A stretch of 64,000 nucleotides of DNA from a virus (lineage: Duplodnaviria > Heunggongvirae > Uroviricota > Caudoviricetes). Shown here piece after piece: positions 10,713 through 42,563 of this stretch (position 1 is its first letter; the number at the start of each line of letters is the position of its first letter). The DNA is taken from IMG/VR virus record IMGVR_UViG_3300025387_000012, positions 1 to 64,000 of that record. The stretch is one strand, 5' to 3'. Under the pieces are notes generated by a model. That model was not told where the DNA came from and ran no database searches. It worked only from the letters and a program-made list of their open reading frames with translations. Both the position numbers and the translations under genes were made by a program.

Positions 10713-10720
10713 GGCATATC

Positions 10721-12700: not shown

Positions 12701-12706
12701 GGGCTG

Positions 12707-12735: not shown

Positions 12736-12741
12736 CTTCTA

Positions 12742-16309: not shown

Positions 16310-16343
16310 TCAAATCACGATCCAACCACGGGTAAATAAAACT

Positions 16344-16769: not shown

Positions 16770-16776
16770 TCGGCTG

Positions 16777-16805
16777 TTTACATCCCATTAAAAATGTGAT
16801 ACGAT
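16777..16805 (+). promoter_or_regulatory. promoter, conserved family (TTTACA...TGTGATACGAT)
   Basis: CGGCTGTTTACATCC. Confidence 0.55.
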
Positions 16806-16829
16806 ACCCTAGTTAGAAAGGAGGCAATC

Positions 16830-17126: not shown

Positions 17127-17128
17127 AA

Positions 17129-19981: not shown

Positions 19982-20037
19982 CGGAATAAAACAGCACTTC
20001 TCTATAAATACCTCCAAGGAAACTTAGGAGGTATTTT

Positions 20038-25342: not shown

Positions 25343-26110
25343 ATGACACGAAAAATAGCCGTTTGTCTCAGCGGCCAGCCTCGCACATGGAAGAAGTGCT
25401 ACTCGACGTGGTTCGATGTCATGGACGGCTGGGGTGAGGTGGATTATTTCTGCCATTTGTGGAACTACAATAGCGACAGCAGCCTATCACAGTATGAGCT
25501 GGGTGACACCCCAGACACCTTGATCACGGCTGAAGAGATGCATGATATCCGCGAGACCCTTCATCCCAAGAAGCTTGTGTTCCAACCTAAAAAGAACGAT
25601 GTCATTCTTGGTGAGGGATTGGCAAACCCTGTCGCACCATGGGCGCACAGCCAGTTCTACAGCATGTGGCGAGTGGCAAACCTGAAGCGTCAGTACGAAA
25701 TCGAAAACGATTTTGAATACGACCTGGTTGTTCGACTTCGAACAGACCTGGTGCTACAGCCAAAGTTCATGCCGCCCGTCATGGCTCCTTCAACGCTCTA
25801 CGCAGTCCACACCCAACCGACTGATCCAGTTTATGGGGTCCCTCGGATTGGAGACATCTTCTTCTTGTCAGATAGCCTAACGTTTGATCACATCGCAATG
25901 TTCTACCACAGCCTTCGCTACATTGATGCTGATCACGTACTCCCCGGAAAGCCAGAGCTTTATGCCTTCCCACCAGAGGTTGCGCTCTATTACTATTGCG
26001 TCATGTCAGGCATCGACATTCAGCCGCTAAACGCCCTCGACATTAAGGTCATGAGAAGCCAAGAGCATCTTGCCAGAGTTGGAAAACTGCACCCATATGA
26101 AACCGCTTAA
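25343..26110 (+). CDS. uncharacterised 'AVCLSGQxRTW' family protein, paralog 1 (candidate glycosyl/group transferase)
   Basis: Shares N-terminal KIAVCLSGQPRTW, central YDLVVRLRTDL and DDIxFxSDS blocks with 3 paralogs in window. Confidence 0.55.
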   Translation: MTRKIAVCLSGQPRTWKKCYSTWFDVMDGWGEVDYFCHLWNYNSDSSLSQYELGDTPDTLITAEEMHDIRETLHPKKLVFQPKKNDVILGEGLANPVAPWAHSQFYSMWRVANLKRQYEIENDFEYDLVVRLRTDLVLQPKFMPPVMAPSTLYAVHTQPTDPVYGVPRIGDIFFLSDSLTFDHIAMFYHSLRYIDADHVLPGKPELYAFPPEVALYYYCVMSGIDIQPLNALDIKVMRSQEHLARVGKLHPYETA

Positions 26111-26903
26111 GATCGCAGTCTGCCTCAGCGGCCAGTCCAGAACGTGGAAGGCTGCGGTGAAGGGTACGCTTCAGCACTTTTCATCAGACCACCATCAGTA
26201 CTTTTTCTTTGGGCACACATGGGATGAGAACTGCTGGAAGACCCTGTTCTCTGGCAACCGCGATTACATTTTTGAGAAGCTAGACGCTGTCGCTCTCGAG
26301 AAAGACATTCGCGAATCCATTCCGATGAGTGGGCTGAAGATTGACCCACAGGCCGGCTGGATCGTCAATGGGCAATGGTGCACATGGGCTCCTATGCTGA
26401 AGAGCACCATGCTAGCCAACCACATGAAGACGCAGTACGAGATCGCAAACAACATGATGTTCGATCTTGTCGTGAAGACCCGCTGGGATGCCCTTTACGA
26501 TCCGCGAATGAAGTTCGAAAGCTTCATCCCGCTTCACACTCACCCTAACGCTCTCTACTGCATGGCCTCCGCAGATTTTGCGTACGAGTACCGTTTGCCA
26601 GCCGTCGACGACATCATGTACTTTGGATCTTCTACCGCCATGAACGTCATTGACAGCCTTTACCACTACTACACCACGTGTCAGCTAAATAACTTTGTCG
26701 GCGTAAAGTTTCCTTCTCAGGTTCTAGACAAGACGGTAGGCGTAGGTGTCCTTCTGTATAAGTGGGCCACTCGTAAAAATTTGCTCCTTTCCACCGGCAG
26801 ATTTAGGACACCAGGGGTTATCCGCAAGAACGTTGAGCACATGAACTGGCCAGAAGATTACGAGAAAATGAAGCACGCTTACATCCACTTCGAGGCTGTC
26901 TGA
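26097..26903 (+). CDS. uncharacterised 'AVCLSGQxRTW' family protein, paralog 2
   Basis: MKPLKIAVCLSGQSRTW, FDLVVKTRWDAL, DDIMYFGSS; overlaps upstream paralog by 14 nt. Confidence 0.55.
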   Translation: MKPLKIAVCLSGQSRTWKAAVKGTLQHFSSDHHQYFFFGHTWDENCWKTLFSGNRDYIFEKLDAVALEKDIRESIPMSGLKIDPQAGWIVNGQWCTWAPMLKSTMLANHMKTQYEIANNMMFDLVVKTRWDALYDPRMKFESFIPLHTHPNALYCMASADFAYEYRLPAVDDIMYFGSSTAMNVIDSLYHYYTTCQLNNFVGVKFPSQVLDKTVGVGVLLYKWATRKNLLLSTGRFRTPGVIRKNVEHMNWPEDYEKMKHAYIHFEAV

Positions 26904-27802
26904 TGACGCACACGATTTTTGCAAATGGCGACAGCTGGACTTTCGGCAGTGAAATCGCAGCCCCCGAGTTCCTTGCTCCTGATGGTAAGGGTGTTGGCAT
27001 GGGCAATCGCTTTACCCATGAGGGTGCCGACTACCTGCCGCATAATGACTTTTACCGCATCCCAAGGGTCTGGCCGTCTCGCCTAGGTGATATGCTCGGT
27101 GACGCAGAGGTGATCAACAAGGCTTGGCCTGCTAGAAGCAATGATACTATCTACCGCTCCACAATGGAGTGGCTGCTGACGAACTACATCACGCCCGGCA
27201 AGGATGTGTCTGACCTGACGGTAATCATTGGATGGAGCAGCCTTGAGAGAAAGAACGTCATCTTCGAGGACTTCGAAGGAAAGCTGTTCGAGTACACCAT
27301 TTGGCCAGCCATGAACCAAACCCACTACTACGATCTGCCGATGGTCAAGAAGTATTTCCAGATGCACGTCACCCATCTTTGGACTCAGCGTGAGTGTCTG
27401 ACCCGCTTCGTAGAACAGAACTTGTCACTGCACCTTCTGTGCAAGGCACATGGAATCAAGCATCACTTCTTCAACTCCTTCTATGTTCCTCGTGGTGAAG
27501 GCGGCAACTTCCATAAGTGGAAGGACCTTGACATCGCAACAGCGATCAAGCAGCTTTACGATCACAGGACAAACGGTTGGCTGGAACCGAACTACAACGA
27601 TCTTAAGGAGGTAGGCCGCCTTCTTCAAATGTGGGAATCTATTCCTGAAGAAGTGTTCCTCAACAAGAGCACTGGACTAACCTTCAAGACGCATGTTGAG
27701 CAAAACCTGCCGCACGAGCTTAGGTGGTGCGGCATTCACCCAAGTCCAGAGGGTCATGAGGTCTGGGCAAAACACCTTCACAAGCATCTGTTCAATGGGT
27801 AA
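26903..27802 (+). CDS. SGNH/GDSL-like hydrolase/acyltransferase-fold protein, paralog 1
   Basis: N-terminal FANGDSWTFG (GDS block I) and C-terminal HPSPEGHEVWA (DxxH-like block V). Confidence 0.5.
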   Translation: MTHTIFANGDSWTFGSEIAAPEFLAPDGKGVGMGNRFTHEGADYLPHNDFYRIPRVWPSRLGDMLGDAEVINKAWPARSNDTIYRSTMEWLLTNYITPGKDVSDLTVIIGWSSLERKNVIFEDFEGKLFEYTIWPAMNQTHYYDLPMVKKYFQMHVTHLWTQRECLTRFVEQNLSLHLLCKAHGIKHHFFNSFYVPRGEGGNFHKWKDLDIATAIKQLYDHRTNGWLEPNYNDLKEVGRLLQMWESIPEEVFLNKSTGLTFKTHVEQNLPHELRWCGIHPSPEGHEVWAKHLHKHLFNG

Positions 27803-28577
27803 GCTGGTAATCTGTGGCGACAGCTTTAACGCTGGCATTGGATGTCGTGACCTCTTCACACAGCCATACGGGATTCTTCTTGCGCAGAAGCTGGGATATG
27901 ATCCTATCATTCTAGCTCGTGGTAGCGCTAGCAACTTCGCTGTCTATCTTCAGGCGAAGTGGGCAGCTGAACATATCGTCAGCGAAGGCGATGTCGTTGT
28001 CATCAGCGTGACGAGCTACGACCGCATTGAGTGGATCGCTGAAGGGAAGAGCAATGCTCACCCAGCAACTCTAGGCGCCAACAACATTAACTATCACCAG
28101 TACCCTCCGCACCACGGGTACTACGACACGCGCCACTATCCTTTCTACTTTGAAGGCCGTGAAGAGTATGACCCTAAGCTGCTCACAGAGCAGATTCCAG
28201 CGTTCGATGACTACCTTGGCATCCACAAGAAGAAGCACCAAGGCAGCATCCAGTACTACAAGCGCCTACATTCAGAACCAGTTCCTAAGATCGAACTGAT
28301 GCTCGACTACTGCATGAACGTGATGGACTACGACATCAAAAGGCAATACGACATTGGTTTGATCTTCATGGCTTACACCATGCTGAAGAGAAAGGGCATT
28401 CGCTGCATCGTGCTCTCACATGATGAGATGGTCAAAGCAATGGTCGGTGAAGACACGGTCAGCATCAACTGGGGCGAGTACACCCTCAAGTACCCTGACA
28501 CGATTGGCAGTGGTCATGCTTCTGAGGAAGCACATGTTGAAATCGCGGACATTCTCTATGAGCATCTTCAGCCATGA
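27795..28577 (+). CDS. SGNH/GDSL-like protein, paralog 2
   Basis: LVICGDSFNAGIGC block I; clear paralog of 28574 gene (ILARGSASNFAVYLQA vs NLGRGGASNYAIYLQA). Confidence 0.55.
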   Translation: MGKLVICGDSFNAGIGCRDLFTQPYGILLAQKLGYDPIILARGSASNFAVYLQAKWAAEHIVSEGDVVVISVTSYDRIEWIAEGKSNAHPATLGANNINYHQYPPHHGYYDTRHYPFYFEGREEYDPKLLTEQIPAFDDYLGIHKKKHQGSIQYYKRLHSEPVPKIELMLDYCMNVMDYDIKRQYDIGLIFMAYTMLKRKGIRCIVLSHDEMVKAMVGEDTVSINWGEYTLKYPDTIGSGHASEEAHVEIADILYEHLQP

Positions 28578-29350
28578 AGATGGGATTCTGTGGTGACAGC
28601 TTTACCGCCGGCATTGGGTGCATGAATCTCTATGAGCAACCATATCCGATTCTTACGAGCAAGCACTTCAATGCTAAGCTGACCAATCTTGGCAGAGGTG
28701 GCGCAAGCAACTACGCCATCTATCTTCAGGCCATTCATGCTATTGAGGAGGTCAAGGTTGACATTCTGGTCATTAGCATGACAAGCATGGATCGCTTTGA
28801 CTGGATCGCTGAAGGTCATGACGCGGAATACATCACCGCCAGAAACATTAACTATCATGACTACGCACCATTCAACTTCCCTCAGCCAAACCATGACAAG
28901 CCACTCGTTCACCCATTTGCAAAAGACCCAGAGTATGATCCTCTTCTTCTGTCTCAGAACGTATCGACGATAGTTGAAGCGATCAAGAAGCCAGACATAG
29001 CAGCGCTTGCGCTCAAGAAGGAACCAAAGGCCAAGCTAAAGAAGATTCTTGACTTTTATGCTGATGTTCTTCCATGGCACGTCAAGATCAGCTATGACGT
29101 CGGGCTGATGGCAGCTGCCTACACCAGAGCAAAGAAGGCTGGGATCAACTGCATCGTCATTGGCTTTGAAAAGGAACTCCTCGCCACCATTCCACCCGAG
29201 GATTTGATTAACCATAACTGGTTTGCCTTCAGCCACCAGTATCCTGATTCAATCAAGAGCATGCACGCGAGTGAAGATGGGCATCAAGCCTTCTCTGAGA
29301 CCCTTATCAAAAGGATAGAGCAAAATGGCTATCACAACTCTGTACGCTAA
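28574..29350 (+). CDS. SGNH/GDSL-like protein, paralog 3
   Basis: GFCGDSFTAGIGC block I; C-terminal ASEDGHQAF (DxxH block V). Confidence 0.55.
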   Translation: MKMGFCGDSFTAGIGCMNLYEQPYPILTSKHFNAKLTNLGRGGASNYAIYLQAIHAIEEVKVDILVISMTSMDRFDWIAEGHDAEYITARNINYHDYAPFNFPQPNHDKPLVHPFAKDPEYDPLLLSQNVSTIVEAIKKPDIAALALKKEPKAKLKKILDFYADVLPWHVKISYDVGLMAAAYTRAKKAGINCIVIGFEKELLATIPPEDLINHNWFAFSHQYPDSIKSMHASEDGHQAFSETLIKRIEQNGYHNSVR

Positions 29351-30146
29351 TGGCTGCTCTTGGACTGCGGGAGATGGAGTAGAGCAGGATCCTTTCTTCG
29401 TTGAAATGTTCCCCAACATGACTCCCGTTCAAAAGCGAAATGCTCTAGGCCTTGACATCGCCAACTACGCGTGGCCTCGTTACCTTGCTGAACGACTTAA
29501 CATTCCTAACGTAGTGAATGATGCGATCGGCGGTGGCAGTAACGCTCGCGCATTCCGAATGACCCTTGAATATGTTGCTAAGCTTACTGAAGAGCAAAGA
29601 GCTGAAACTCTAGTCATCATCGGCTGGACAACGATTGAGCGCGGTGAAATCTACCTTCACGGTGAAACGAGTGTTGAAGGTCAAGGTGGCCCAGGCTGGT
29701 ATCGCTTCAACGCTGGTCAACCATTCACTGCCTACTACAACTGCTTCAGCAAATCCAAGCTCCAAAACCTCAATAAATACCATGAGCTATATGTCACTGA
29801 GGTATATGACGACGCTGCTGCGATCGAGATGAACTTTCTTCAGGTGTTCAGCCTGAAGAACACTCTTGAAAATCTTGGCGTCAAGTATCTGTTTTTCTCT
29901 GCTCTGAATGGTGGTCTATCAGGACCTCACCCATCAGCAGAAGTAAAACAGAAAGACTTGATGTTCACGCCACTTCTTCGCTGCAACAACATCATCGATC
30001 TGAAGTATTCGTACAATAGGTTTGTAGTAGAAAAACGGCTACCACTGTCTTCATGCATTCATCCACTCATTGAGACCAACAAAGTGTGGGCTGAGTATTT
30101 GGATAATGAGCTGAATGCTCGCAACATCTTAGGAGATCCTTCATGA
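29325..30146 (+). CDS. SGNH-like protein, paralog 4 (divergent: Cys replaces Asp in block I)
   Basis: LYANGCSWTAGDG aligns with ANGDSWTFG of paralog 1. Confidence 0.45.
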   Translation: MAITTLYANGCSWTAGDGVEQDPFFVEMFPNMTPVQKRNALGLDIANYAWPRYLAERLNIPNVVNDAIGGGSNARAFRMTLEYVAKLTEEQRAETLVIIGWTTIERGEIYLHGETSVEGQGGPGWYRFNAGQPFTAYYNCFSKSKLQNLNKYHELYVTEVYDDAAAIEMNFLQVFSLKNTLENLGVKYLFFSALNGGLSGPHPSAEVKQKDLMFTPLLRCNNIIDLKYSYNRFVVEKRLPLSSCIHPLIETNKVWAEYLDNELNARNILGDPS

Positions 30147-30247
30147 TCGACTTCTTTAAGAACATCATCTACCAAATCAAGAGCAAGATTAAGTACCACC
30201 AAAAGATGAAAGAAATCCGCAAGAGGGACCCGTATATCTACAAATGA
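30143..30247 (+). CDS. micro-ORF (34 aa, Lys-rich) translationally coupled on both sides
   Basis: ATGA overlaps with both neighbouring genes fill the 97-nt gap exactly. Confidence 0.25.
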   Translation: MIDFFKNIIYQIKSKIKYHQKMKEIRKRDPYIYK

Positions 30248-30939
30248 TTAAGGTCATCAGCAAATCTTCATCTGATCAAATCTACGCCAACACTTCCTAT
30301 ATCTTCTACAGAAGCTCTGTTGAAAACGGAAGTCTAATCTTTGGTGGTAACTTTGACAGGCTCGTGTACGTCGTGGATGGTGCTTTTACCGTTCAGGGCC
30401 ACGCACTTGAGCCCGGCGATACGGTGCAAATCAAGGGTCGCGTAACGTCTGTTGATGGCACTGGCACGCTCTACGTAGCGCAAGCCGCCATCCCGCATGA
30501 AGACATTCAGCAAATCGTCAAGATCACCAGGGCAGGTGCTCACTACAAGGTAGTGAAGCCGTGGGGCCATGAGCTATGGCTCAACGGCGAAGGTGCTCCA
30601 TTCTGCGCGAAGAAGATCTTCATCAAGGCCGGAAATCAGACAAGCCTGCAGTACCACAACTTCAAGGAAGAGACCAACCTTGTAGAAGATGGTCAGGTTG
30701 TTCTTGTCACGCAAGCAGACATGTCTGTCGCCATCGATGATGTGCAATCGCAGCATCTCCAAGAAACCACATTCGCTGGTCCAGTCTGCTTTCACGTTAT
30801 ACCTCGCACCATTCACAGACTGCGAGCCATTACTGACCTTAACCTTTTCGAAGTCTCTACACCGCATCTCGATGATGTCATTAGACTTCAAGATGATGCT
30901 AATCGTTCACACGGACGTATAGATAGCGAGCACCAATGA
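30244..30939 (+). CDS. cupin-fold sugar(-phosphate) isomerase-like protein
   Basis: KPWGHELWL motif typical of type II phosphomannose-isomerase/cupin sugar isomerases; conserved His/Gln (SLQYHNFKEE). Confidence 0.55.
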   Translation: MIKVISKSSSDQIYANTSYIFYRSSVENGSLIFGGNFDRLVYVVDGAFTVQGHALEPGDTVQIKGRVTSVDGTGTLYVAQAAIPHEDIQQIVKITRAGAHYKVVKPWGHELWLNGEGAPFCAKKIFIKAGNQTSLQYHNFKEETNLVEDGQVVLVTQADMSVAIDDVQSQHLQETTFAGPVCFHVIPRTIHRLRAITDLNLFEVSTPHLDDVIRLQDDANRSHGRIDSEHQ

Positions 30940-32444
30940 AGACCGTCGTACTCCTCACCGCTGGCACTGGAACTCGGATGGGGAAGTATTCGAGCGTCAT
31001 CAACAAGACGTTGCTTCCTATCAAAGACAAGGCGATCATCTCTCACATTATTTCTCAGTTTGATGCTGACACCGAGTTCGTAGTTGCGCTTGGTTACAAG
31101 GGCGACATGGTCAGAACCTACCTTGAGCTTGCCCATGAGACATCCAAGTTTACCTTCGTTGAGGTAGAAGACTTCGATGGTCCCGGTGCAGGTCCAGCGC
31201 AATCCCTCATTCAGTGCCGCGACAAGCTCAACGGTCCATTCTACATCATCGCGTGTGACGCCCATTACGAAGGGCTAAACAACATTGATGAGAGCACCAA
31301 CGTTGTTTGCGTTGCGCCAGTAAGCATCGAGCTTTCGCCGGCCTACTGCAATGTTGAGCTAGATGGATCAAGAATATCCAAGATCGTTGACAAGCAGTAC
31401 TGCACGAGTGGACTGGCTGTCAGTGGTGCGTTCTTCATCAAGGACACCGAACCTTTCTGGAACGCTTTGACTGGATCTGAGCTCTCGACCGGATGGTCTG
31501 TCCTTGAGACCCACGCCGTCGAACTGCCATGGCACGACCTTGGCACCTTCGACAAGTACCAAGCCTTCTACCTTGAGAACTCTCCCTATGACTTTAGCAA
31601 GACCGATGAGTTCCTCTACATCATCAATGGTAGAGTGATCAAGTGGTTCAGGGACAAGACGATCACTGACAACCGCGTCCTCCGTATTCAGGGTCGTGAG
31701 CACCTCTTCCCAACGATTGACTTCCAAAAGGACGGCTTCTACTCCTACAAGTTTGTGCCAGGTGAAGTACTCTATCAGTGCGTTACTCCTCAAATCTTTG
31801 AAGACTTCCTGAAATGGATGTCGTTTGAAGTATGGCCAGTTCGTCGAAGCACAAGCGTCAGACTTACTAACGCAATGTGCCGTGACTTCTACTATACGAA
31901 GACCATGAAGCGCTTGGATATGTTCCGTGACAAGTATCCAGACTTCAACCCCAAAGTCATTAACAATCAGGTGATGAAGGTTGACATGGACAATGGGTTG
32001 AAGCTCATTAACTGGAAAGCAGTCTGTGAAGAAGAGATGTACCAACGCTCTGCCTTTATTCACGGTGACTTGCAGTTTGACAATGTCATCTACGATGGTA
32101 GCAAGTTTACCATCCTTGACTGGCGCCAAGACTTTGCGGGCAATCTTCAGGTTGGCGATCTCTACTACGATGCTGCAAAGCTGCTTGGTGGCATGATCCT
32201 TAACTACGACCTCATCCGTCAAAACCAGTTCAGATTTACTGAAGACGGCGACAGCTGCACCTTCGCATACACCGCGCGTCATGAGTATCAGCCCCTTCGC
32301 GAAAGACTTCAGCACCTGCTGCCAAGTCCTATCATCGACGATCTTATCACGATCATCTTCCTCAACATGGCCCCGCTGCACTCAGCTCCCTTTGACAAGC
32401 TGCTCTACTGCCTGGCATTGGAGCGTCTCAATGGACTTGCTTGA
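30936..32444 (+). CDS. bifunctional sugar-phosphate nucleotidyltransferase / APH-ChoK-type kinase
   Basis: N-term VVLLTAGTGTRMG (sugar-1-P NTP-transferase G-loop); C-term HGDLQFDNVIYDGSKFTILDWRQDFAG (Brenner motif HGDxxxxN + DxxF of aminoglycoside/choline kinase fold). Confidence 0.65.
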   Translation: MKTVVLLTAGTGTRMGKYSSVINKTLLPIKDKAIISHIISQFDADTEFVVALGYKGDMVRTYLELAHETSKFTFVEVEDFDGPGAGPAQSLIQCRDKLNGPFYIIACDAHYEGLNNIDESTNVVCVAPVSIELSPAYCNVELDGSRISKIVDKQYCTSGLAVSGAFFIKDTEPFWNALTGSELSTGWSVLETHAVELPWHDLGTFDKYQAFYLENSPYDFSKTDEFLYIINGRVIKWFRDKTITDNRVLRIQGREHLFPTIDFQKDGFYSYKFVPGEVLYQCVTPQIFEDFLKWMSFEVWPVRRSTSVRLTNAMCRDFYYTKTMKRLDMFRDKYPDFNPKVINNQVMKVDMDNGLKLINWKAVCEEEMYQRSAFIHGDLQFDNVIYDGSKFTILDWRQDFAGNLQVGDLYYDAAKLLGGMILNYDLIRQNQFRFTEDGDSCTFAYTARHEYQPLRERLQHLLPSPIIDDLITIIFLNMAPLHSAPFDKLLYCLALERLNGLA

Positions 32445-33237
32445 TGTAGTTAAAACGGCAGGTGACGAGATCATCTGCGCGTCCCTCAGCCAGAAGCCAG
32501 GAAAGTTTGGAGCGACCATCCACAACGCCGGCTTCAAGCACCTTGGCCTAAACTATCGCTATGTCGGCTGCGCCGAAACCAATATCGAGCGCGGACTTCA
32601 GATCGCCAGAGAGCATGGCGTTCGCGGAGTAGGCATCTCAATGCCATTCAAGGTCGCCGCCCTCAACCTTATGGACGAGGTTCATGATACAGCGCTGTTC
32701 GCTGGAGCAGTAAATACAGTCGTAAATGATAACGGTTGGCTGACGGGATACAATACTGACGTTGCTGGCTTTAGCGCTCTTGCAGAGGAAGCAAACCTCC
32801 AGCGAGACGATCGCATCTGCATCCATGGATCAGGTGGGGTAGCTAGAGCCGTTCTTGTTGCGCTCAAGGATTACTCGGACGTGTCTATCTACGCCAGAAA
32901 CCAGCGTGAAGCTGCTGTTCTTGGCGACAAGTATGGCCGTCCTGTCTACCACTTTACCCATCCTAAGCGTGAACACGGTGCGGTCATTAACTGCACTCCA
33001 GTCGGTATGAATGATGAAGTTATCAGTTTCATTGACCTTGACGCCATGACAAAGTTCATCGACGTAATCGTGAAAGAAACGCCAAACGTTAGAGCGGTAA
33101 GAGCAGCTGGAAAGCCAGCCTTTACCGGCGAGACTATGGCTCTTCATCAAGCGTTTGCCCAGTTTGAGCTCTACACAGGTGTTAAGGCCCCAACCGAAGA
33201 AATGGTAAGAGCCCTAAATGCTGCATCCCAAACTTAG
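32431..33237 (+). CDS. shikimate/quinate dehydrogenase (AroE)-like NAD(P)-dependent oxidoreductase
   Basis: SLSQKPGKFGATIHNAGFKHLGLNYRY, GISMPFKVAAL, GAVNTVVNDNGWLTGYNTDVAGF - canonical AroE substrate-domain motifs; Rossmann GSGGVARA. Confidence 0.6.
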   Translation: MDLLDVVKTAGDEIICASLSQKPGKFGATIHNAGFKHLGLNYRYVGCAETNIERGLQIAREHGVRGVGISMPFKVAALNLMDEVHDTALFAGAVNTVVNDNGWLTGYNTDVAGFSALAEEANLQRDDRICIHGSGGVARAVLVALKDYSDVSIYARNQREAAVLGDKYGRPVYHFTHPKREHGAVINCTPVGMNDEVISFIDLDAMTKFIDVIVKETPNVRAVRAAGKPAFTGETMALHQAFAQFELYTGVKAPTEEMVRALNAASQT

Positions 33238-33703
33238 GCACTTCGTTGTTGACGTCGATGGCGTCATGACTACCGGACAGTTCATCTACACAGCTGACGG
33301 AAAGGTAGGTAAAGTGTTTGGGCCACATGACAGCGACGGCCTAAAGCTTATCAAGCATCTCATCAACATCCAGTTCATAACTGCAGACCAACGTGGCTTT
33401 GACATCTCAAAGAAACGCATCGTTGATGATATGGGTTATCCGTTGACCCTTGTCACTGAAGCAGAGCGCGAGAGCTACATTGAGCAGCTCGGGTTTGACT
33501 TCACGGCGTTTATGGGAGATGGCTACTACGACGCACCTGTCCTTCAGAAGTGCGCTATTGGCATCGCTCCAGCCAGTGCGCGCTATGAAGCAAAACGCGC
33601 CGCACGTTTCATAACGAGTTCACGGGCAGCTGAAGGCGCCTTGATGGACGCGTGCATCTATCTCAAGGGTATCCTGACACATGAGTACGACAAAGAAGAT
33701 TGA
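33218..33703 (+). CDS. KdsC-like HAD phosphatase (sugar-phosphate phosphatase)
   Basis: FVVDVDGVMTTGQFIY (DxDGVxTDG), ITADQRGFDISKKRIVDDMG, FMGDGYYDAPVLQKC (GDxxxD) as in Kdo-8-P phosphatase family. Confidence 0.65.
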   Translation: MLHPKLRHFVVDVDGVMTTGQFIYTADGKVGKVFGPHDSDGLKLIKHLINIQFITADQRGFDISKKRIVDDMGYPLTLVTEAERESYIEQLGFDFTAFMGDGYYDAPVLQKCAIGIAPASARYEAKRAARFITSSRAAEGALMDACIYLKGILTHEYDKED

Positions 33704-34697
33704 ACTTGAAGTTGGCATCGGGCCTATGAGCCTTGAAGTCATCGACGCGGTAGTGAAGTACGCGAACAAGAGAGATCGTGACCTCATGCTTATCGCCTCG
33801 CGTAACCAAATCGAGTGCGAGACGCTCGGCAGCGGTTATGTTGGTGGCCTGCACTCGAAGACCTTTGTTGACTATGTTCGCGGTAGAGACATGGATCGTC
33901 GCGTAAAGATTTGCCGCGACCACTGTGGTCCATACCTTCACGCTGCTGAGAAAGGCATGTCATATGAAGAGGCCATGGAGCGCGTCATCGAAAGTCTGAA
34001 GACCGACATGACCTGTGGCTTCGATCTTATCCACGTCGACACCTCGCTTGCTCCAGACCCTTACAAAGCGGCTGAGCTTATGTTCTCGACCCTTGAAAGG
34101 TCTAAGCGCGATCTCGAGTATGAGTTCGGCACCGAGGACAACGTGGGCACAGCTGTCTCCGCAAAGAAGTTTGAGCACGACATTCTGTTCGTAAAGCAGT
34201 TCGTCAACCCTCGCTTCGTCGTTGGTCAGACCGGCTCGCTCGTTAAGAGCATCCATCAGGTTGGTACCTTCGCTCCTGACACCGTCAAGCAGCTGGTTGA
34301 AATCGCCAACAAGCATAGCGTGAAGCTCAAGGAGCACAACGCAGATTACATCTCGCACGCTGAAGTCAATGAGCGCAAGAAGCTTGGTGTTGGTGCTATC
34401 AACGTAGCACCAGAGTTTGGTGTTGCTCAGACGCAGGTCCTGATCGAGCTTGCCAACCGTTGGAGACTTGAAGATGAGCTGAACAAGTTCATGAAGGTCG
34501 TCGTCAAGGGTGGCAAGTGGAAGAAGTGGAAGCACGGCACCGACTGGGATGACAAGCTGAAGTTCCTTTCCGCAGGTCACTACCACTTCACATCTCCCGA
34601 GTACATCCGCCTGGTTGACATGATCAACCAAAAGGAAAAGTTCGGTGCGGCAGTCGAGAAGAAGATCTTCAAGCTGATCGACAACTATGCAAAATGA
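33681..34697 (+). CDS. GatZ/KbaZ-like (tagatose-bisphosphate aldolase/kinase family) protein
   Basis: Collinear motifs with GatZ: GIGPMSLEVIDAV, LMLIASRNQIECETLGSGYVGGL, ICRDHCGPY, LIHVDTSL. Confidence 0.55.
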   Translation: MSTTKKIELEVGIGPMSLEVIDAVVKYANKRDRDLMLIASRNQIECETLGSGYVGGLHSKTFVDYVRGRDMDRRVKICRDHCGPYLHAAEKGMSYEEAMERVIESLKTDMTCGFDLIHVDTSLAPDPYKAAELMFSTLERSKRDLEYEFGTEDNVGTAVSAKKFEHDILFVKQFVNPRFVVGQTGSLVKSIHQVGTFAPDTVKQLVEIANKHSVKLKEHNADYISHAEVNERKKLGVGAINVAPEFGVAQTQVLIELANRWRLEDELNKFMKVVVKGGKWKKWKHGTDWDDKLKFLSAGHYHFTSPEYIRLVDMINQKEKFGAAVEKKIFKLIDNYAK

Positions 34698-35464
34698 AGG
34701 TTGCGGTCTGCATAAGCGGTCAGCTTAGGACTGGCCTTCGGTGTCTAGAAAATCAAGCTCACTTCTTGAGAGGGCTTGATGCAGACTTCTTCCTACATAC
34801 GTGGTCTACCAACACCAACAAGCGCTTTCCTCGCGATCATGAAGAGACACCTGTACCTCGTCAGGTCATAAAGGACTATGTCTCTGCTCTGAAGCCAAAG
34901 CGCTGGACGTTTGAAGATCAGCACCTCAACTTTAGAGGTGGCAAGGACATCGCGCCAGTAGCCCTTCACTATTCTTGGATGAAGAGCGTTCAGCTCAAGC
35001 AAGAGCATGAGCGTCACACAGGTGTCAGCTACGACGCAGTCATCAAGATCCGTCCTGACCTTCTTCTCAGGCCAGAAAGAAATCCAGCGTCAAGCATTCT
35101 CGAGAAGGTTTATGGTAAGCGCAAGCTCATCATTGAAAACATTCCTGAGTGGTGGAAGGTTATGGATTGGCATGATGATGTCATGTGGTTTGGTGACAAT
35201 GAGACCATGAACATGGCGACTGAATACTTTCAGCAGACCTATGTCGAGCGCACCAATGCTGAAGCATTTGGCTTCTTCGCAGACAAGAGAGGTGTTGATG
35301 TTGATGGCACCTATGAGTTCTCTTATGCCGTCTATCGAAAAGAATGCGAGCACTTTGACCCAATGACTCAATATGAAGAGTGCTTCGAGTGCGAGACACA
35401 CTACACCAGTACAGCGTGCACAACCTTGGCAACACCTGAAGAATCTCCGGACTACTACTCATGA
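34694..35464 (+). CDS. uncharacterised 'AVCLSGQxRTW' family protein, paralog 3
   Basis: MKVAVCISGQLRTG, YDAVIKIRPDLL, DDVMWFGDNETM. Confidence 0.55.
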   Translation: MKVAVCISGQLRTGLRCLENQAHFLRGLDADFFLHTWSTNTNKRFPRDHEETPVPRQVIKDYVSALKPKRWTFEDQHLNFRGGKDIAPVALHYSWMKSVQLKQEHERHTGVSYDAVIKIRPDLLLRPERNPASSILEKVYGKRKLIIENIPEWWKVMDWHDDVMWFGDNETMNMATEYFQQTYVERTNAEAFGFFADKRGVDVDGTYEFSYAVYRKECEHFDPMTQYEECFECETHYTSTACTTLATPEESPDYYS

Positions 35465-36294
35465 GGATTGCTCTTTGCTACAGCGGCCAGATCCGCACAG
35501 GTCGAAAGTGCATTGAAAACCAGATCAGGTTTCTCGGTGAGCACGCGAAGGCTGACACCTTCCTCCACACGTGGACCCACAACTCCAATCGAAAGTTCCC
35601 AGGCATCCGCGGAATAACCAGGGTACCACAGGAGCAGATTGACAGCTACGTTCAAGAGCTGAACCCAATCGCTTCTTTGGTTGAGGATCCAATCGAGCGT
35701 GGTATCTACGCAGCTCACGCTGCTTACTGGCCGCCTGCTCAGTCTCTCTTCTATTCGTGGCGTGAAAGCATCCGCATCATGCACGAGTATGAAGAGCAGA
35801 TGGGAATCAAGTACGACGTTGTCGTCAAGCTGCGCCCCGACATTATCTTCTCAGATCGTTGGAGACTAGAAGACGACCTTGAAGCTGCCGCGAGTGGAAA
35901 GTTTCTCATTCCCAAGTTGACGCACAATCCAACTTGGATGGATGATGAAAGAATCTACGATGACTTCTTTGTAACTACTGGCGACAACATGCGCAAGGCT
36001 CTTGGCTTCTACACGGAAGCTTTTGAGGACAAGACAACAGGTCACATTAACTTCGGCAGATGGCTGCACGATAATGGCATGTCTCCTGAGATGCCGTCAC
36101 GCTCCGAGTTCATGATCTACCGAAAGGAAGCCCAGGACCTTAACCCAATGGTGGACTACGACAAGATCGCTGTAGGCCTTACGCGACTGCGAGCCACAGG
36201 CCCATTCTTCTACAACGATCCCAACGCTAGGGTTAACCCTGATGCCGCGGTCATTATCATCCAGCCTGGTGAAAGCGCCGACTATTACAAATAG
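35461..36294 (+). CDS. uncharacterised 'AVCLSGQxRTW' family protein, paralog 4
   Basis: MRIALCYSGQIRTG, YDVVVKLRPDII, DDFFVTTGDNMR. Confidence 0.55.
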   Translation: MRIALCYSGQIRTGRKCIENQIRFLGEHAKADTFLHTWTHNSNRKFPGIRGITRVPQEQIDSYVQELNPIASLVEDPIERGIYAAHAAYWPPAQSLFYSWRESIRIMHEYEEQMGIKYDVVVKLRPDIIFSDRWRLEDDLEAAASGKFLIPKLTHNPTWMDDERIYDDFFVTTGDNMRKALGFYTEAFEDKTTGHINFGRWLHDNGMSPEMPSRSEFMIYRKEAQDLNPMVDYDKIAVGLTRLRATGPFFYNDPNARVNPDAAVIIIQPGESADYYK

Positions 36295-36308: not shown

Positions 36309-36339
36309 CATCAAAGCGATATACGATATCCGAATGACA
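36309..36339 (+). promoter_or_regulatory. promoter, conserved family (TTTACA...TATACGAT)
   Basis: GGCTGTTTACAATC. Confidence 0.5.
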
Positions 36340-36879
36340 AAGAAACACTTTACGAGTGACCTGCATTTTGGTCACGAGAACATCATCAAGTACTGCAAGC
36401 GTCCATGGAAAAACGCAAGTGACATGGACGAGGCCCTCATCGCCAACTGGAACAACGTGGTTGCGGATGATGACGAGGTCTACATTCTGGGCGACCTATT
36501 CTTCTGTAACGAGAAGAAGGCGTCTGAACATCTGTCGCGGCTCAAGGGAAAGAAGTTCTTTCTTCCTGGCAACCACGACAAGATGCTGCGCAAGTCGAAG
36601 GTCATGCTCGACAAGTTCGACAAGATTCTTCCAGACCTGCACGAGGAGTCCATCGACGGCATTCACGTCGTCATGTGCCACTATCCGCTCCTCACATGGA
36701 ACAGAGCCTTTCGCGGTTCGTTCATGCTTCACGGGCACAGCCACAACAGCATTCCCTTCGACAAGAAGCTGCGGCGTCTCGACGTTGGTGTCGACGCGCA
36801 GTACTACGTCCCAATCGAGTGGGATGAGATTAAGCGTAAGCTGGAAAAGGTAGACCCGACGGACGTCAGGGACTACTAA
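36334..36879 (+). CDS. calcineurin-like metallophosphoesterase
   Basis: FTSDLHFGHEN (motif I DxH), ILGDLF (GDxx), LPGNHD (GNH[DE]); downstream of conserved promoter 36309. Confidence 0.65.
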   Translation: MTKKHFTSDLHFGHENIIKYCKRPWKNASDMDEALIANWNNVVADDDEVYILGDLFFCNEKKASEHLSRLKGKKFFLPGNHDKMLRKSKVMLDKFDKILPDLHEESIDGIHVVMCHYPLLTWNRAFRGSFMLHGHSHNSIPFDKKLRRLDVGVDAQYYVPIEWDEIKRKLEKVDPTDVRDY

Positions 36880-37469
36880 ACGACCTTCTTCATCCAGAAG
36901 ATTTTGCCGAGGTTGACGCGCTTAGGTGTGCCGTCCTTGCTCTCTGGCTGTGGGATGATTCCTGTCTGCTTCAGATCGTGGAAGAACTTCTCTGACAGGT
37001 TGCGTGCTCTTATGCCGCGTGGGAACACATTAACGGGAATCATTGAGTCATAGCCATTGACCGCGCCGATCGCGTTCACGCGTCCACGGCCCTCATGACC
37101 AACGATCTTGAATCGAAGCGGCTCACCTTGCTCGTACTCCTCGTCATTGAAGTCGGCTAGGAAGAATGGCGTTCCAACCGGCACCCTCTTGCGAATCAGT
37201 GCTTCCATCTTCTCAGCATCTTCCTTGCGATCAGCAGGCGTGGCGAGCTCAAGGAATGTCTTTGGTGACATGAAGACCGTAAAGCCCATGTAGTCAACGT
37301 TCGAGTTCAGCGGTACGTTGCCGAGACCTTTGTGCGTGTCGAACGCGACGTCACCTACACGAAAGCGGTCCTCGATGTTCTGTGGGCTTGGGTTCGGTAG
37401 CGCGTCAAACTCTGACTGGGTCAGGTAGTGCGGCTCTTCGTGCTGCTCGAAAAGTTCAGCTAGCTTCAC
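36876..37469 (-). CDS. hypothetical protein (GTG start, N-terminal VKLAELFEQ motif)
   Basis: GTGA start/stop overlap with upstream gene, GGAG 7 nt upstream; shares ELFEE-type N-terminus with two upstream minus-strand genes. Confidence 0.4.
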   Translation of the reverse strand: MKLAELFEQHEEPHYLTQSEFDALPNPSPQNIEDRFRVGDVAFDTHKGLGNVPLNSNVDYMGFTVFMSPKTFLELATPADRKEDAEKMEALIRKRVPVGTPFFLADFNDEEYEQGEPLRFKIVGHEGRGRVNAIGAVNGYDSMIPVNVFPRGIRARNLSEKFFHDLKQTGIIPQPESKDGTPKRVNLGKIFWMKKVV

Positions 37470-37894
37470 TTGAAGACTCCAAATTTTCCAGGTGGATATC
37501 CCTTTGGCACGTGACCCCACACCCACAGTGAAGTTAGCTTGCGGGTTGGAACATCCTTGCCATCCTTATCCTTCTTCACCATAGGACCAGAGTTACCAGA
37601 CATTCGAGCGATAAAGGATAGCTGACGGCCCATCCAAGAGATGTCAGTCTTGTCCCATTCAGACAGTGGCTTCTCTCTCATTCTAAGAATGGCTCTTGCT
37701 GATTCACGACCTGTTCCAATGCCGAGCTTTTCAGCTTCCTTCTTTCGAAGACCTGCTTCCTGCCCGGTTTCTGTGCCTAGAAACTTCTTAAGCGTGTCTG
37801 ATGGCATGTTTACAAGCTCGCGCCAACGCTTGTACTTTTCCTTGACATCGTCGGAGATAGGTGCTTTTTCTTCGAAGAGTTCTTTAAGCAGCAT
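37466..37894 (-). CDS. hypothetical protein (N-terminal MLLKELFEEK motif)
   Basis: 142-aa ORF on minus strand. Confidence 0.45.
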   Translation of the reverse strand: MLLKELFEEKAPISDDVKEKYKRWRELVNMPSDTLKKFLGTETGQEAGLRKKEAEKLGIGTGRESARAILRMREKPLSEWDKTDISWMGRQLSFIARMSGNSGPMVKKDKDGKDVPTRKLTSLWVWGHVPKGYPPGKFGVFK

Positions 37895-42527: not shown

Positions 42528-42563
42528 AGGACACCCAATAGAATTGCTTGGAGTATTTATAGC

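Follow-up and report, generated by a model that had tools for sequence, protein, structure and literature searches.

The window, a 64,000-nucleotide stretch of a Caudoviricetes virus (IMG/VR record IMGVR_UViG_3300025387_000012), carries on its + strand a coupled array of 14 overlapping open reading frames that extends from about 25343 to 36294:

25343..26110, + strand: GT-A-fold (nucleotide-diphospho-sugar transferase fold) paralog 1 (phrog_13607, E 1.2e-19)
26097..26903, + strand: GT-A-fold paralog 2, overlapping paralog 1 by 14 nt
26903..27802, + strand: SGNH/DUF6071 paralog 1, a GDS-type esterase or acyltransferase fold (PF19547, E 2.5e-14)
27795..28577, + strand: SGNH paralog 2, with a GDSF motif, overlapping SGNH paralog 1 by 8 nt
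28574..29350, + strand: SGNH paralog 3 (PF13472 Lipase_GDSL_2, E 4e-4, under the Pfam cutoff)
29325..30146, + strand: SGNH/DUF6071 paralog 4 (PF19547, E 2.8e-17)
30143..30247, + strand: basic 34-residue ORF bridging SGNH paralog 4 and the cupin gene, with an ATGA overlap at each end
30244..30939, + strand: type II phosphomannose-isomerase (PMI)-like cupin, 231 residues (PF01050)
30936..32444, + strand: N-terminal sugar-1-phosphate nucleotidyltransferase (NT) fused to a C-terminal APH-fold kinase, 502 residues (PF12804 and PF01636)
32431..33237, + strand: SdhL-type shikimate-dehydrogenase-like oxidoreductase, 268 residues (PF08501 and PF18317)
33218..33703, + strand: KdsC-family capless C0 HAD phosphatase, 161 residues (match to 1j8d)
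33681..34697, + strand: GatZ-like class II aldolase-fold metalloenzyme, 338 residues (PF08013, E 9e-9)
34694..35464, + strand: GT-A-fold paralog 3 (phrog_13607, E 4.8e-9), with an ATGA overlap with the GatZ-like gene
35461..36294, + strand: GT-A-fold paralog 4, with an ATGA overlap with paralog 3

An earlier note on this DNA had described a compact pathway of five coupled genes at 30244-34697. All five ORFs are indeed found there on the + strand, and every junction between them overlaps (by 4, 14, 20 and 23 nt), but the limits proved too narrow, as the array also takes in the four GT-A-fold and four SGNH/DUF6071 paralogs. Promoter and terminator scans added nothing to the gene overlaps as evidence for an operon, and no transmembrane segment was found in any of the 14 array proteins, all of which are soluble. 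Two starts differ from the mechanical ORFs: GT-A paralog 1 (ORF from GTG 25331) probably starts at ATG 25343, and for the reductase (ORF from 32281) we chose ATG 32431, which fits the 268-residue gene called in L002. This phage relative and another, L010, show full synteny with the window cassette and keep the 34-residue ORF with an identical C-terminus, KMKEIRKRDPYIYK. The array shares its + strand block with replication and nucleotide genes.

When aligned, the four GT-A-fold paralogs have invariant SGQxRT, HxW and RxD motifs, and their phrog_13607-type family comprises 6304 representative clusters. Paralog 2 matches PF25072 (DUF7796) weakly and is syntenic in both phage relatives, while the model of paralog 4, of moderate confidence (pLDDT 76.8), fits nucleotidyltransferases about as well as GT-A glycosyltransferases. 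Among the SGNH proteins, paralog 1 has its GDS motif at residues 9-11 and accompanies the SdhL-type cassette at 8 viral loci; paralogs 2 and 3 are 37% identical, and the latter displays GDS, GGASN and DGH blocks.

The domain calls made earlier for the five central genes (cupin, NT/kinase fusion, AroE-like, KdsC-like and GatZ-like) hold in Pfam, PDB and Foldseek matches. All NCBIfam scores lie far under the equivalog cutoffs, and thus no cassette member is assignable to a specific known activity. The cupin, a homolog of the ManC PMI domain, matches PF01050 (MannoseP_isomer) with 25.8 bits against a cutoff of 23.6 and TIGR01479 (GMP_PMI) at the C-terminal part. KPWG, the block S134-x-Q136-x-H138-xx-K141-x-E143, H191 and a DDV-R tail show 90-100% conservation among 133 orthologs, and we propose the protein as a candidate isomerase of ketose phosphate to aldose phosphate. 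The functional pairing of a PMI-type cupin with a nucleotidyltransferase recalls the bifunctional PMI-GMP enzymes ManC and AlgA, and in some genomes cupin and nucleotidyltransferase are fused (cupin-NT-kinase in P0082/L006). Unlike in ManC/AlgA, the cupin is N-terminal or encoded separately, the NT domain is of the NTP_transf_3 type, and the role of phosphomannomutase would be taken by a kinase and a phosphatase.

The NT-kinase fusion has more than 1100 homologs. Its PF12804 (NTP_transf_3) match covers residues 4-109 and its PF01636 (APH) match residues 326-420, with GxGxR, K24, D108, HGDxQxxN and DWRxDF invariant in 26 diverse homologs. For the NT domain, which matches PDB 5xhw, the best specific named equivalog is HddC (34.8 bits against a cutoff of 300), with weak matches to IspD, ribitol-5-P cytidylyltransferase and inositol-1-P cytidylyltransferase. 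By hhalign, each half aligns with the RB69 AfhE analogue at 91.7% probability (NT to p053, kinase to p052), and the kinase half has a specific motif in common with the AfhE-type sugar-phosphate 1-kinase. GT2-NT-kinase fusions also exist among the homologs. The APH fold is also that of choline and alcohol kinases, and some sources label homologs of the fusion 'choline kinase'. The HAD protein, best matched by KdsC (1j8d, E 8.7e-13), has the DxDxT motif and scores 47 bits with TIGR01670 (cutoff 107); all 103 orthologs keep D12, D14, D101 and D105. We propose that it strips the terminal phosphate from a sugar bisphosphate.

The dehydrogenase has the shikimate-dehydrogenase domains that led to its description as AroE-like, a label that can be refined to the SdhL branch, its best PDB match being 1npy (HI0607 SdhL, E 1.2e-45). 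It has the catalytic Lys/Asp pair and NADP-binding motifs in common with HI0607, and 76 orthologs conserve K72, D108, GxG and R154; the cofactor is probably NADP(H). NCBIfam scores stay under every equivalog cutoff, including that of SdhL (192 bits against 306). The family also includes a 5-ketofructose reductase (7cok), and we know of no physiological role for SdhL itself. The SdhL branch occurs without the usual shikimate context, and the window gene lies in a sugar cassette, not near aro genes.

For the GatZ-like protein, the AlphaFold model (pLDDT 95.8) places 3txv and 2fiq, both of the GatZ family, on top in Foldseek (TM about 0.8), with class II FBP aldolases next, and hhalign with E. 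coli GatZ gives 96.4% probability; the Pfam match is confined to the first ~105 residues, and in NCBIfam the protein reaches 28.8 bits where the cutoff is 568.8. Enzymes of the GatZ family epimerise fructose-6-P at C4, with a catalytic Asp and a metal bound by His/Glu/His (PMC11907403). These residues align with D80, H81, E152 (and E148) and H219 of the window protein, in which D80-H81, E148 and H219 are invariant across 140 orthologs. In its fold, its catalytic Asp-His pair and its Glu and second His, the window protein thus agrees with GatZ/KbaZ (PMC11907403; 2fiq, 3txv), whereas it is ~80 residues shorter, does not conserve GatZ Glu44 and, unlike E. coli GatZ, retains the aldolase-type Glu at the ELG position (E148). 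The C1-phosphate loop of true aldolases, HG[AG]SG, reads HNADY in the window protein and HSTDY in GatZ. A GatZ-type site without this loop argues for a ketose monophosphate 4-epimerase or an aldol-transfer enzyme, and the missing loop argues against a hexose-bisphosphate aldolase. Fold and hhalign uphold the GatZ-like identity; the hexose-bisphosphate chemistry, one of the options attached to it earlier, is disfavoured.

Relatives of the fusion are encoded on 237 genome_contigs stretches, from which 80 cellular loci of many phyla were kept (CPR, DPANN, Bdellovibrionota, Planctomycetota and others), and on 273 IMG/VR stretches, with 80 viral loci examined. Of the 48 complete cellular neighbourhoods, 46 contain the cupin, 47 the GatZ-like gene, 42 the HAD and 44 a reductase (SdhL-like or SDR), and 37 have all five functions together. 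The most constant partner of the fusion is the GatZ-like gene (71/80 cellular and 74/80 viral loci). Gene order is permuted across lineages; locus L090 shows the phage order. A non-orthologous classical SDR stands in for SdhL within the cassette in 17 cellular loci, which marks the reductase step as integral in cells; in viruses, where 28 of 80 loci have an SdhL-type reductase, the step is optional, and the GT-A-like paralogs co-vary with SdhL (11/12 loci). In cells, the cassette is part of envelope-glycan loci that also encode Wzx-like flippases, GT1/GT2 enzymes and methyltransferases, and at 15 loci a GT2-like gene lies within the cassette. In viruses, the islands around the cassette contain genes for a GDP-mannose dehydratase, an RmlC-like epimerase and a C-methyltransferase, and some of the contigs, which carry UvsX and AHCY, look T4-like and marine. 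Genes resembling GDP-mannose 4,6-dehydratase (GMD) flank 40/80 viral cassettes when ORFs are clustered and 20/80 when a single representative is used in tblastn; the window module itself has none.

We consider it likely, with a probability of roughly 0.7, that the five genes form one co-evolving cassette leading from a central ketose phosphate to a nucleotide-activated sugar. This pathway, as the earlier note had conceived it, is supported by co-conservation, fusions, invariant catalytic residues and the AfhE/AfhF precedent. The GatZ-like metalloenzyme would reshape a ketose omega-phosphate by retro-aldol/aldol chemistry, either epimerising C4 (e.g. fructose-6-P to tagatose-6-P) or moving a C1-C3 unit onto another aldose phosphate to give a longer ketose phosphate, and the PMI-type cupin would turn the ketose phosphate into an aldose phosphate. 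The APH-fold half would then phosphorylate the anomeric hydroxyl, the KdsC-type HAD would take the terminal phosphate off the resulting sugar 1,omega-bisphosphate, and the N-terminal half of the fusion would join the sugar-1-phosphate to an NTP. One carbonyl/alcohol redox tailoring step, at some point in this order, may be the work of the SdhL-like NADP(H) enzyme; an isomerase-kinase-phosphatase-NT route needs no reductase, so the scheme leaves the reductase of 44/48 complete cellular neighbourhoods unexplained. The activated sugar would pass to the four GT-A-fold paralogs, with ester chemistry by the four SGNH paralogs possible.

Nucleotide-heptose synthesis proceeds through GmhA, HldE (or HddA plus HddC), GmhB and HldD, and corresponds one-to-one in its isomerase, anomeric kinase fused to a nucleotidyltransferase, terminal phosphatase and NADP-dependent tailoring enzyme. 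The families differ: cupin here and SIS there, APH as opposed to PfkB or GHMP, a KdsC-type as opposed to a GmhB-type HAD, SdhL or classical SDR as opposed to extended SDR, and a domain order reversed from that of HldE. The KdsC type of the HAD was counted against the scheme. AfhE/AfhF and an arabinose-5-phosphate isomerase make up the UDP-D-arabinofuranose pathway of phages RB69, DLP3 and HY126 (PMC13326640). That pathway is likewise phage-encoded, with an N-terminal nucleotidyltransferase/C-terminal APH-like kinase protein, a HAD phosphatase and a sugar-phosphate isomerase, and runs from ketose-P through aldose-P, 1,omega-bisphosphate and 1-phosphate to the NDP-sugar. BLAST found no similarity between it and the window cassette, in which the isomerase is a cupin and not a SIS-domain protein, the HAD is KdsC-type and not GmhB-like, GatZ-like and SdhL-like enzymes are extra, the neighbouring transferases are GT-A-like and not GT-B, and no base-modifying enzyme lies alongside. 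The nearest analogue is AfhE/HldE-type logic, in which a phosphorylated sugar is phosphorylated again before its terminal phosphate is removed; the earlier comparison with heptose activation thus survives, whereas that with LicA/LicC is superseded. In the lincosamide GDP-octose pathway (LmbR/LmbN/LmbP/LmbK/LmbO) of an actinomycete antibiotic cluster (PMC4351081), similar in logic, a C-C bond enzyme makes an unusual ketose phosphate ahead of isomerase, kinase, phosphatase and nucleotidyltransferase. It may serve as a model for the GatZ-like step as aldol transfer, although LmbR is a class I transaldolase and not of class II aldolase fold, and its setting is not a viral or surface-glycan cassette. 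In the window cassette, most steps fall to other protein families than in the heptose, UDP-arabinofuranose and GDP-octose routes, with a GatZ-type metal enzyme and a reductase added.

That the genes are unrelated metabolic morons, adjacent by chance, has in its favour only that each family has housekeeping members too. We regard this as virtually excluded: the grouping is far beyond chance, and co-conservation, permuted synteny, gene fusions and overlapping frames contradict it. The earlier note would have given up its pathway for morons lacking co-conservation; instead, the grouping recurs in phages and across the 80 cellular and 80 viral loci. An improbable alternative is that the product is an NDP-alditol or other NDP-polyol or cyclitol and not a glycosyl donor, by TarI/TarJ, CDP-glucitol or LicA/LicC-type logic: the SdhL-like enzyme would reduce a ketose phosphate, the polyol would be dephosphorylated and rephosphorylated or directly nucleotidylated, and the phospho-polyol transferred. 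Such a scheme accounts for the reductase of the cellular neighbourhoods and accords with the alcohol kinases of the APH fold, the weak cytidylyltransferase matches and the absence of shikimate context, but it has no role for a PMI-type cupin that is fused to the NT-kinase in some genomes, most viral cassettes lack the reductase, the fused or embedded transferases are GT2 or GT-A and not TagF/LicD-type phosphotransferases, and the kinase has the AfhE-type motif. Less probable still is that the cassette does no more than replenish an ordinary nucleotide sugar, such as GDP-mannose via mannose-1,6-bisphosphate, with the GatZ-like and SdhL-like proteins as auxiliary carbon-flux enzymes. The kinship of the cupin to ManC and the GMD-like genes flanking many viral cassettes fit this, yet the mannose route needs no GatZ-like enzyme, here the most constant partner with invariant metal and catalytic residues, and the window module has no GMD gene.

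Even if the cassette makes an activated glycosyl donor, its acceptor might be phage DNA, a doubtful but real possibility in which the GT-A-like paralogs would put the sugar on 5-hydroxymethylcytosine or glucosyl-hmC and the hypermodification would block host nucleases. The window encodes a close homolog of T4 dCMP hydroxymethylase (PDB 1b49, E 1.8e-70, with the cytosine-specifying Asp retained), a T4 beta-glucosyltransferase-like protein (PF09198), a MazG/PRA-PH-like NTP pyrophosphatase and nucleotide kinases, from which the phage DNA is predicted to contain hydroxymethylcytosine. The sole characterised phage pathway with such an NT-kinase fusion and HAD serves DNA arabinosylation (PMC13326640), and the solubility of all 14 proteins and the placing of the array among replication and nucleotide genes point the same way. 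However, some 19-24 kb separate the module from the hydroxymethylase gene and some 13 kb from the beta-glucosyltransferase-like gene, whereas in RB69 and DLP3 the sugar genes adjoin the base-modifying enzyme. In none of the 80 viral loci did a hydroxymethylase homolog turn up at a distance of 10 kb or less from the cassette, which there lies in sugar-gene islands, and cellular cassettes belong to envelope-glycan loci. In cultured phages, the GT-A-like family occurs in Synechococcus phages only, the S-SM2 match being to a gene annotated for capsular polysaccharide biosynthesis. Context thus favours a cytoplasmically assembled glycoconjugate, either a host envelope glycan precursor or a virion protein, over hydroxymethylcytosine DNA, on which the sugar could possibly end up. 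If the phage does synthesise its own NDP-sugar, it would glycosylate independently of the host sugar-nucleotide pool.

The five plus-strand ORFs at 30244-34697 that an earlier note had picked out as a sugar-activation unit are present exactly as described. Pfam assigns them, in order, as a MannoseP_isomer cupin, an NTP_transf_3+APH fusion, a protein with shikimate dehydrogenase N- and C-terminal domains, an HAD hydrolase and a GatZ_KbaZ-like protein, and NCBIfam yields the same family assignments for all five. Because each NCBIfam score falls far under the curated equivalog cutoff, none of these proteins can be assigned to a specific known activity. Neighbouring cassette genes overlap by 4, 14, 20 and 23 nt, and the overlaps continue on both sides, so that the genes of the unit are real but its boundaries were drawn too narrowly: 14 ORFs at ~25343-36294 abut or overlap one another, in the order two phrog_13607 paralogs, four SGNH/DUF6071 genes, a 34-aa ORF, the five cassette genes and two further phrog_13607 paralogs. 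No membrane segment is predicted in any of the 14 array proteins. The phrog_13607 family comprises 6304 representative clusters (E <= 1e-3) and is distantly related to Pfam DUF7796; a GT-A fold is predicted for the flanking paralogs (henceforth the GT-A-like family) from a model built from seven sequences only. A PDB sequence search with one SGNH paralog gave no match. The short ORF lies immediately before the cupin gene:

30143-30247, +, 34-aa highly basic ORF MIDFFKNIIYQIKSKIKYHQKMKEIRKRDPYIYK, in ATGA overlap with both neighbours

The phage relatives L002 and L010 keep it with an identical C-terminus; in four viral loci further removed, it was looked for and not seen.

Scans for sigma-70 promoters and intrinsic terminators came out at or below shuffle expectation and are uninformative on the transcription unit. 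The T4 late-promoter motif TATAAATA occurs in three copies in the window, vs 0.29 expected from shuffles, none of them beside the sugar module:

20003-20010, TATAAATA copy
42554-42561, TATAAATA copy
48847-48854, TATAAATA copy

One copy is located just upstream of a NUMOD3 homing-endonuclease-like gene (20038-20847, +). This gene and a second homing-endonuclease-type gene, with HNH motifs (22120-22620, +), sit between paralogous AAA-like genes (18470-19981 and 23110-24075, phrog_1250), homologs of which adjoin the cassette in nine other viral loci. The window further encodes an SPFH/Band 7 domain protein of 417 aa (17129-18382, +) and a 1402-aa protein (509-4717, -) with head-decoration or structural (Ig-like) PHROG matches. 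PADLOC gave no hits. Just downstream of the module lies a metallophosphoesterase gene (36334-36879, +), which is 36% identical to a gene of Xanthomonas phage BUDD (L172, 18539-19030). We rejected it as a module member because this homolog adjoins topoisomerase II in BUDD, a phage without the module; it is a backbone gene, preceding topoisomerase II in BUDD too, and stands outside the sugar module.

The NT-kinase fusion carries PF12804 (residues 4-109) and PF01636 (residues 326-420) on a single polypeptide, and the GxGxR motif, K24 and D108 of its NT half, together with HGDxQxxN and DWRxDF of its kinase half, are invariant in 26 diverse fusion homologs. The kinase half matches generic APH and not PF01633 (E <= 0.01), a family matched by one distant homolog. 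The cupin scores above the gathering score of PF01050 (25.8 bits vs a cutoff of 23.6), and its 133 orthologs show 96-100% conservation of the PWG and SxQxHxxRxE...H motifs (K105-P-W-G, S134, Q136, H138, K141, E143 and H191). An acidic C-terminal tail, a usual feature of type II PMI, is conserved too. For the reductase, the best PDB match is HI0607 SdhL (1npy, E 1.2e-45), whose family includes 5-ketofructose reductase. The protein matches PF08501 and PF18317, and 76 orthologs keep K72 and D108, the catalytic Lys/Asp pair of AroE, along with G131xG133 and R154, in line with a Rossmann NADP site. It stays below the equivalog cutoffs (TIGR00507, 144.4 bits vs 200.2; NF009202, 192.3 vs 306), and no aro-pathway context was found for its gene, which has sugar-pathway neighbours in every locus examined. 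The HAD protein belongs to the capless KdsC type and carries DxDxT (1j8d, E 8.7e-13), and residues D12, D14, D101 and D105 of DxDxT/GDxxxD are invariant in 103 orthologs; it too scores below the KdsC cutoffs (TIGR01670, 47 bits vs 106.95; NF007019, 37.8 vs 208), and no KdsA, KdsB or KdsD partners were seen in the cassette neighbourhoods.

An AlphaFold model of the GatZ-like protein (pLDDT 95.8) gave as closest Foldseek matches the GatZ-family structures 3txv (E 1e-17) and 2fiq (E 3e-17), with TMq of 0.79-0.82, followed by class II FBP aldolases. At the sequence level, a PDB search matched just the N-terminal third of 2fiq, PF08013 covers residues 20-124 only, and TIGR02810 reaches 28.8 bits vs a cutoff of 568.8. 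Alignment by hhalign to E. coli GatZ (96.4% probability) pairs D80-H81, E152 and H219 with GatZ D87-H88, E171 and H257. Residues D80, H81, E148, H219 and N241 are 100% conserved in 140 orthologs, and E152 is <90% conserved in the large ortholog set. Compared with the true aldolase GatY (hhalign, just 31.7% probability), the middle His ligand (GatY H180) is missing, with QVG in its place. The HG[AG]SG loop, with which class II aldolases hold the DHAP C1 phosphate, is replaced by HNADY, and GatZ has HSTDY there. Lacking both the middle His and the loop, the protein was rejected as a true bisphosphate aldolase; the earlier note had taken the GatZ- and KdsC-like members to point to hexose-bisphosphate or higher-carbon sugar chemistry, but bisphosphate aldolase activity is unlikely. 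A 2025 study proposed D87, H88, E171 and H257 of GatZ as catalytic base and Zn ligands, and demonstrated by genetics that GatZ and KbaZ turn fructose-6-P into tagatose-6-P (PMC11907403). Judging from the active-site residues, we infer a ketose substrate whose C1 hydroxyl is free and whose phosphate is distal, which would lead to retro-aldol/aldol chemistry: either C4 epimerisation or transfer of a C1-C3 unit to a new aldose phosphate.

In one of three characterised pathways that run through ketose-P, aldose-P, aldose-1,omega-bisphosphate and aldose-1-P to NDP-aldose, ADP- and GDP-heptose are made by GmhA, HldE or HddA/HddC, and GmhB, and then by the NADP-dependent HldD. The same order of intermediates is followed in the lincomycin GDP-octose pathway (LmbR/N/P/K/O), whose ketose phosphate is assembled beforehand by a transaldolase (PMC4351081), and in the UDP-arabinofuranose pathway of RB69-like phages, with AfhE as an NT-kinase fusion and AfhF as an HAD (PMC13326640). 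Most likely, the cassette maps function for function onto this heptose, octose and arabinose activation logic, each step being one that we infer from sequence comparison. The GatZ-like enzyme would supply or edit a ketose phosphate, the cupin would isomerise ketose-P to aldose-P, and the APH domain would act as the anomeric kinase yielding aldose-1,omega-bisphosphate. The KdsC-type HAD would then be the terminal phosphatase releasing aldose-1-P, the NTP_transf_3 domain would be the nucleotidyltransferase forming NDP-aldose, and SdhL or an SDR would serve as redox tailoring enzyme. Sugars compatible with the data include D-talose or D-galactose via tagatose-6-P, a manno-type heptose or octose, and L-arabinose via pentulose 4-epimerisation.

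Like AfhE, the window fusion has an N-terminal NT and a C-terminal APH-like kinase. Its halves align by hhalign with RB69 p053 and p052, the NT and kinase halves of the AfhE analogue, at 91.7% probability each, and the two fusions share a D[PW]RxxF[GA]xxxxGxxxYDxAK stretch. BLAST of the RB69 arabinose genes against the window was negative except for the ThyA homolog, and only profile comparison links the fusions. Other features differ: whereas the AfhE/AfhF pathway employs a SIS-domain arabinose-5-phosphate isomerase, the isomerase candidate in the window is the cupin, and tblastn with RB69 p055 (the SIS isomerase) gives no hit in the window (E <= 1); AfhF is a GmhB-like HAD, whereas the window HAD belongs to the KdsC family, and RB69 p051 (the AfhF-type HAD) has no match in the window. 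Moreover, the RB69 sugar genes adjoin a ThyA-type cytosine modifier and GT-B arabinosyltransferases, whereas the cassette lies ~24 kb from the ThyA-family gene at 5905-6675 and is flanked by genes of predicted GT-A fold. The heptose/arabinose activation logic is familiar; here other enzyme families carry it out, and two further chemistries are added.

Homologs at E <= 1e-3 number 1118 for the fusion and 1205 for the GatZ-like protein, nearly all with generic names at most. In the phage L002 (232 kb) the fusion is 88% identical and synteny is full, flanking paralogs included; L010 (identical to L092; 358 kb) has full synteny with a fusion at 60% identity. Downstream of the module, L002 encodes BLUF (blue-light sensing FAD) domain and DUF3140 proteins (16947-17375, -, and 16531-16950, -), with equivalent window ORFs at ~36876-38330 on the minus strand. 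When one genome per species was scanned, 237 stretches proved to encode fusion relatives, and 80 cellular loci were kept from them, belonging to CPR bacteria, DPANN archaea, Bdellovibrionota, Planctomycetota, Verrucomicrobiota, Elusimicrobia, a Legionella MAG and SAR86.

Table. Cassette partners within +/-10 kb of the fusion in 80 cellular loci (all MAGs or SAGs) and in the complete subset of 48 loci with >=5 kb on both sides, counted by tblastn with phage queries (E <= 1e-5), which undercounts divergent partners.
Cupin: 71/80 cellular loci; 46/48 complete loci
GatZ-like: 71/80 cellular loci; 47/48 complete loci
HAD: 63/80 cellular loci; 42/48 complete loci
SdhL-like: 49/80 cellular loci; 34/48 complete loci
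SdhL-like or SDR: 66/80 cellular loci; 44/48 complete loci
All five functions: 50/80 cellular loci; 37/48 complete loci

Gene order is permuted among the cellular lineages, with an Andersenbacteria locus (L090) showing the phage order. Gene fusions join the cupin to the NT-kinase (766 aa, P0082/L006) and a GT2 to the NT-kinase (P0057), and a GT2-like gene is located within the cassette in 15 cellular loci. Thus the view that the five genes are co-conserved and not unrelated morons is borne out by the 37 complete cellular neighbourhoods holding all five functions, by the fusions and by synteny. In 17 cellular loci, all of them lacking a detected SdhL-like gene, a classical 240-aa SDR adjoins the fusion, and in 13 of the 17 it falls within the cassette span. 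This is non-orthologous displacement, and since the SDR replaces the SdhL-like gene, the redox step belongs to the pathway in cells. The plain route to an NDP-aldose needs no reductase, yet one lies near the fusion in nearly all complete neighbourhoods (44 of 48); because the plain route leaves this enzyme unneeded, we retain an NDP-alditol or polyol as an alternative product, albeit a distinctly improbable one. The cellular flanks contain GT1/GT2 genes, methyltransferases, Wzx-like flippases and radical-SAM enzymes, as surface-glycan loci usually do.

An IMG/VR scan with a single-protein query found nothing, whereas the alignment-based scan retrieved 273 stretches encoding fusion relatives. 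The viral loci keep the order cupin, NT-kinase, (SdhL), (HAD), GatZ-like.

Table. Cassette genes in viral loci (best 80 of the 273 IMG/VR stretches).
GatZ-like gene: 74/80
Cupin: 61/80; a shorter PMI-type cupin in 37
KdsC-type HAD: 41/80; a different small HAD in 20
SdhL-like gene: 28/80

The SdhL-containing viral version co-varies with the GT-A-like family (11/12 loci) and the SGNH family (8/8), and the extended module is therefore itself a recurrent unit among viruses. Those sharing it are distantly related, their fusion proteins being ~32-34% identical. Following the GatZ-like gene in the SdhL-less viral cassettes examined (L104, L105 and L122 among them) is an unannotated ~363-aa family with no Pfam match (12985-14076 in L105, and 28 other viral loci), which may be the transferase of the SdhL-less viral lineage.

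The hmC genes of the window bear on what the sugar may be attached to. The ThyA-family gene at 5905-6675 (+) encodes a close homolog of T4 gp42 dCMP hydroxymethylase (PDB 1b49, E 1.8e-70) that retains the cytosine-specifying Asp, and further genes of interest are:

9386-9994, nucleotide kinase-like protein
10254-10712, nucleoside 2-deoxyribosyltransferase-like protein
10721-11842, T4 beta-glucosyltransferase-like protein
16224-16769, MazG/PRA-PH-type NTP pyrophosphatase

By homology, these genes form an hmC toolkit, and the phage very probably replaces cytosine with glycosylated hmC. Beside them, a CofD-like protein of 636 aa (12967-14877, +; 2-phospho-L-lactate transferase family, PF01933, E 7e-17) is directly followed by an NTP_transf_3/IspD-like (CofC-like) gene (14808-15671, +) and a guanylate-kinase-like gene (15644-16309, +). 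With a nucleotide-activated donor, the CofC/CofD-type pair could pass on a phospho-linked group, and it may represent a second, unusual modification pathway.

Given that the phage makes hmC DNA and that an all-soluble module would suit a DNA acceptor, the cassette sugar might be placed on hmC DNA, but we consider this unlikely. Cellular cassettes sit in envelope-glycan loci, and viral ones share their islands with genes for GDP-mannose dehydratase, RmlC-like proteins and C-methyltransferases, some of them on contigs of T4-like and marine look with UvsX and AHCY. Among cultured phages, the GT-A-like family was found only in Synechococcus phages, with the S-SM2 match at a gene whose annotation is capsular polysaccharide biosynthesis, and in a comparative review jumbo-phage clusters of this sort are interpreted as modifying the outer polysaccharides of the host (PMC7824862). 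The module is also 13-24 kb from the hmC genes, whereas the two are adjacent in RB69. The acceptor is more likely a non-DNA glycoconjugate, either a host envelope precursor or a virion protein, which we favour over DNA. Slightly more doubtful again than a DNA acceptor as such is its elaborated form, in which an undescribed NDP-sugar (a C4-epimerised or chain-extended, manno-configured and redox-tailored aldose), possibly esterified, would be put onto hmC or glucosyl-hmC by the GT-A-fold and SGNH paralogs. If true, a DNA-borne cassette sugar would constitute a new class of DNA sugar hypermodification and give SdhL-type shikimate dehydrogenase-like and short GatZ-like proteins a first physiological role.

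Searched by megablast, 50,697 phage records gave no match to the region, and no cultured phage carrying the cassette was found by megablast or by tblastn of the fusion and the GatZ-like protein. The tblastn search of cultured phages yielded three kinds of record: a marine single-cell virus, partial Enterococcus phage matches and unverified 'Listeria phage' contigs. In the first (L001, MH319741.1, Marine virus AG-345-E15, single-cell-derived and unannotated), the fusion and GatZ-like genes lie in a large sugar island (4704-17167) with two SDR epimerase/dehydratases, a GHMP kinase and separate nucleotidyltransferase (HddA/HddC-like), an extra APH kinase, an HAD and a 2OG-Fe(II) oxygenase. The last kind (L011, OR846727.1, 9001-10056, and three similar records) holds a GatZ-like homolog at ~31-34% identity without other cassette genes, on unverified, unannotated wastewater contigs named 'Listeria phage LM 4-11-1 / 4-14-1' whose origin is doubtful. 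The nearest isolates by topoisomerase II, the Xanthomonas phages BUDD and X1 (57% identity), both lack the module, which is an accessory island relative to them. Literature searches on the gene combination, DUF6071 and HI0607/SdhL found no publication describing the cassette.

The cassette occurs widely among microbes and viruses that have been little studied. Should the scheme hold, it represents a widespread, as yet unnamed route to an activated sugar (at least 237 genome-collection stretches, 273 IMG/VR stretches and >1100 homologs), in which unrelated enzymes have re-created the heptose/arabinose activation logic. It would also tie the SdhL (HI0607) branch and the short GatZ-like proteins, both without a settled physiological role, to a concrete, testable pathway. 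The cassette is hosted by CPR bacteria, DPANN archaea, predatory bacteria and many aquatic phages, whose surface glycans are almost unknown, and the identity of the sugar would open up their chemistry. In phages, the product could underlie remodelling of host-surface or virion glycans, or a new DNA modification affecting restriction and defence evasion.
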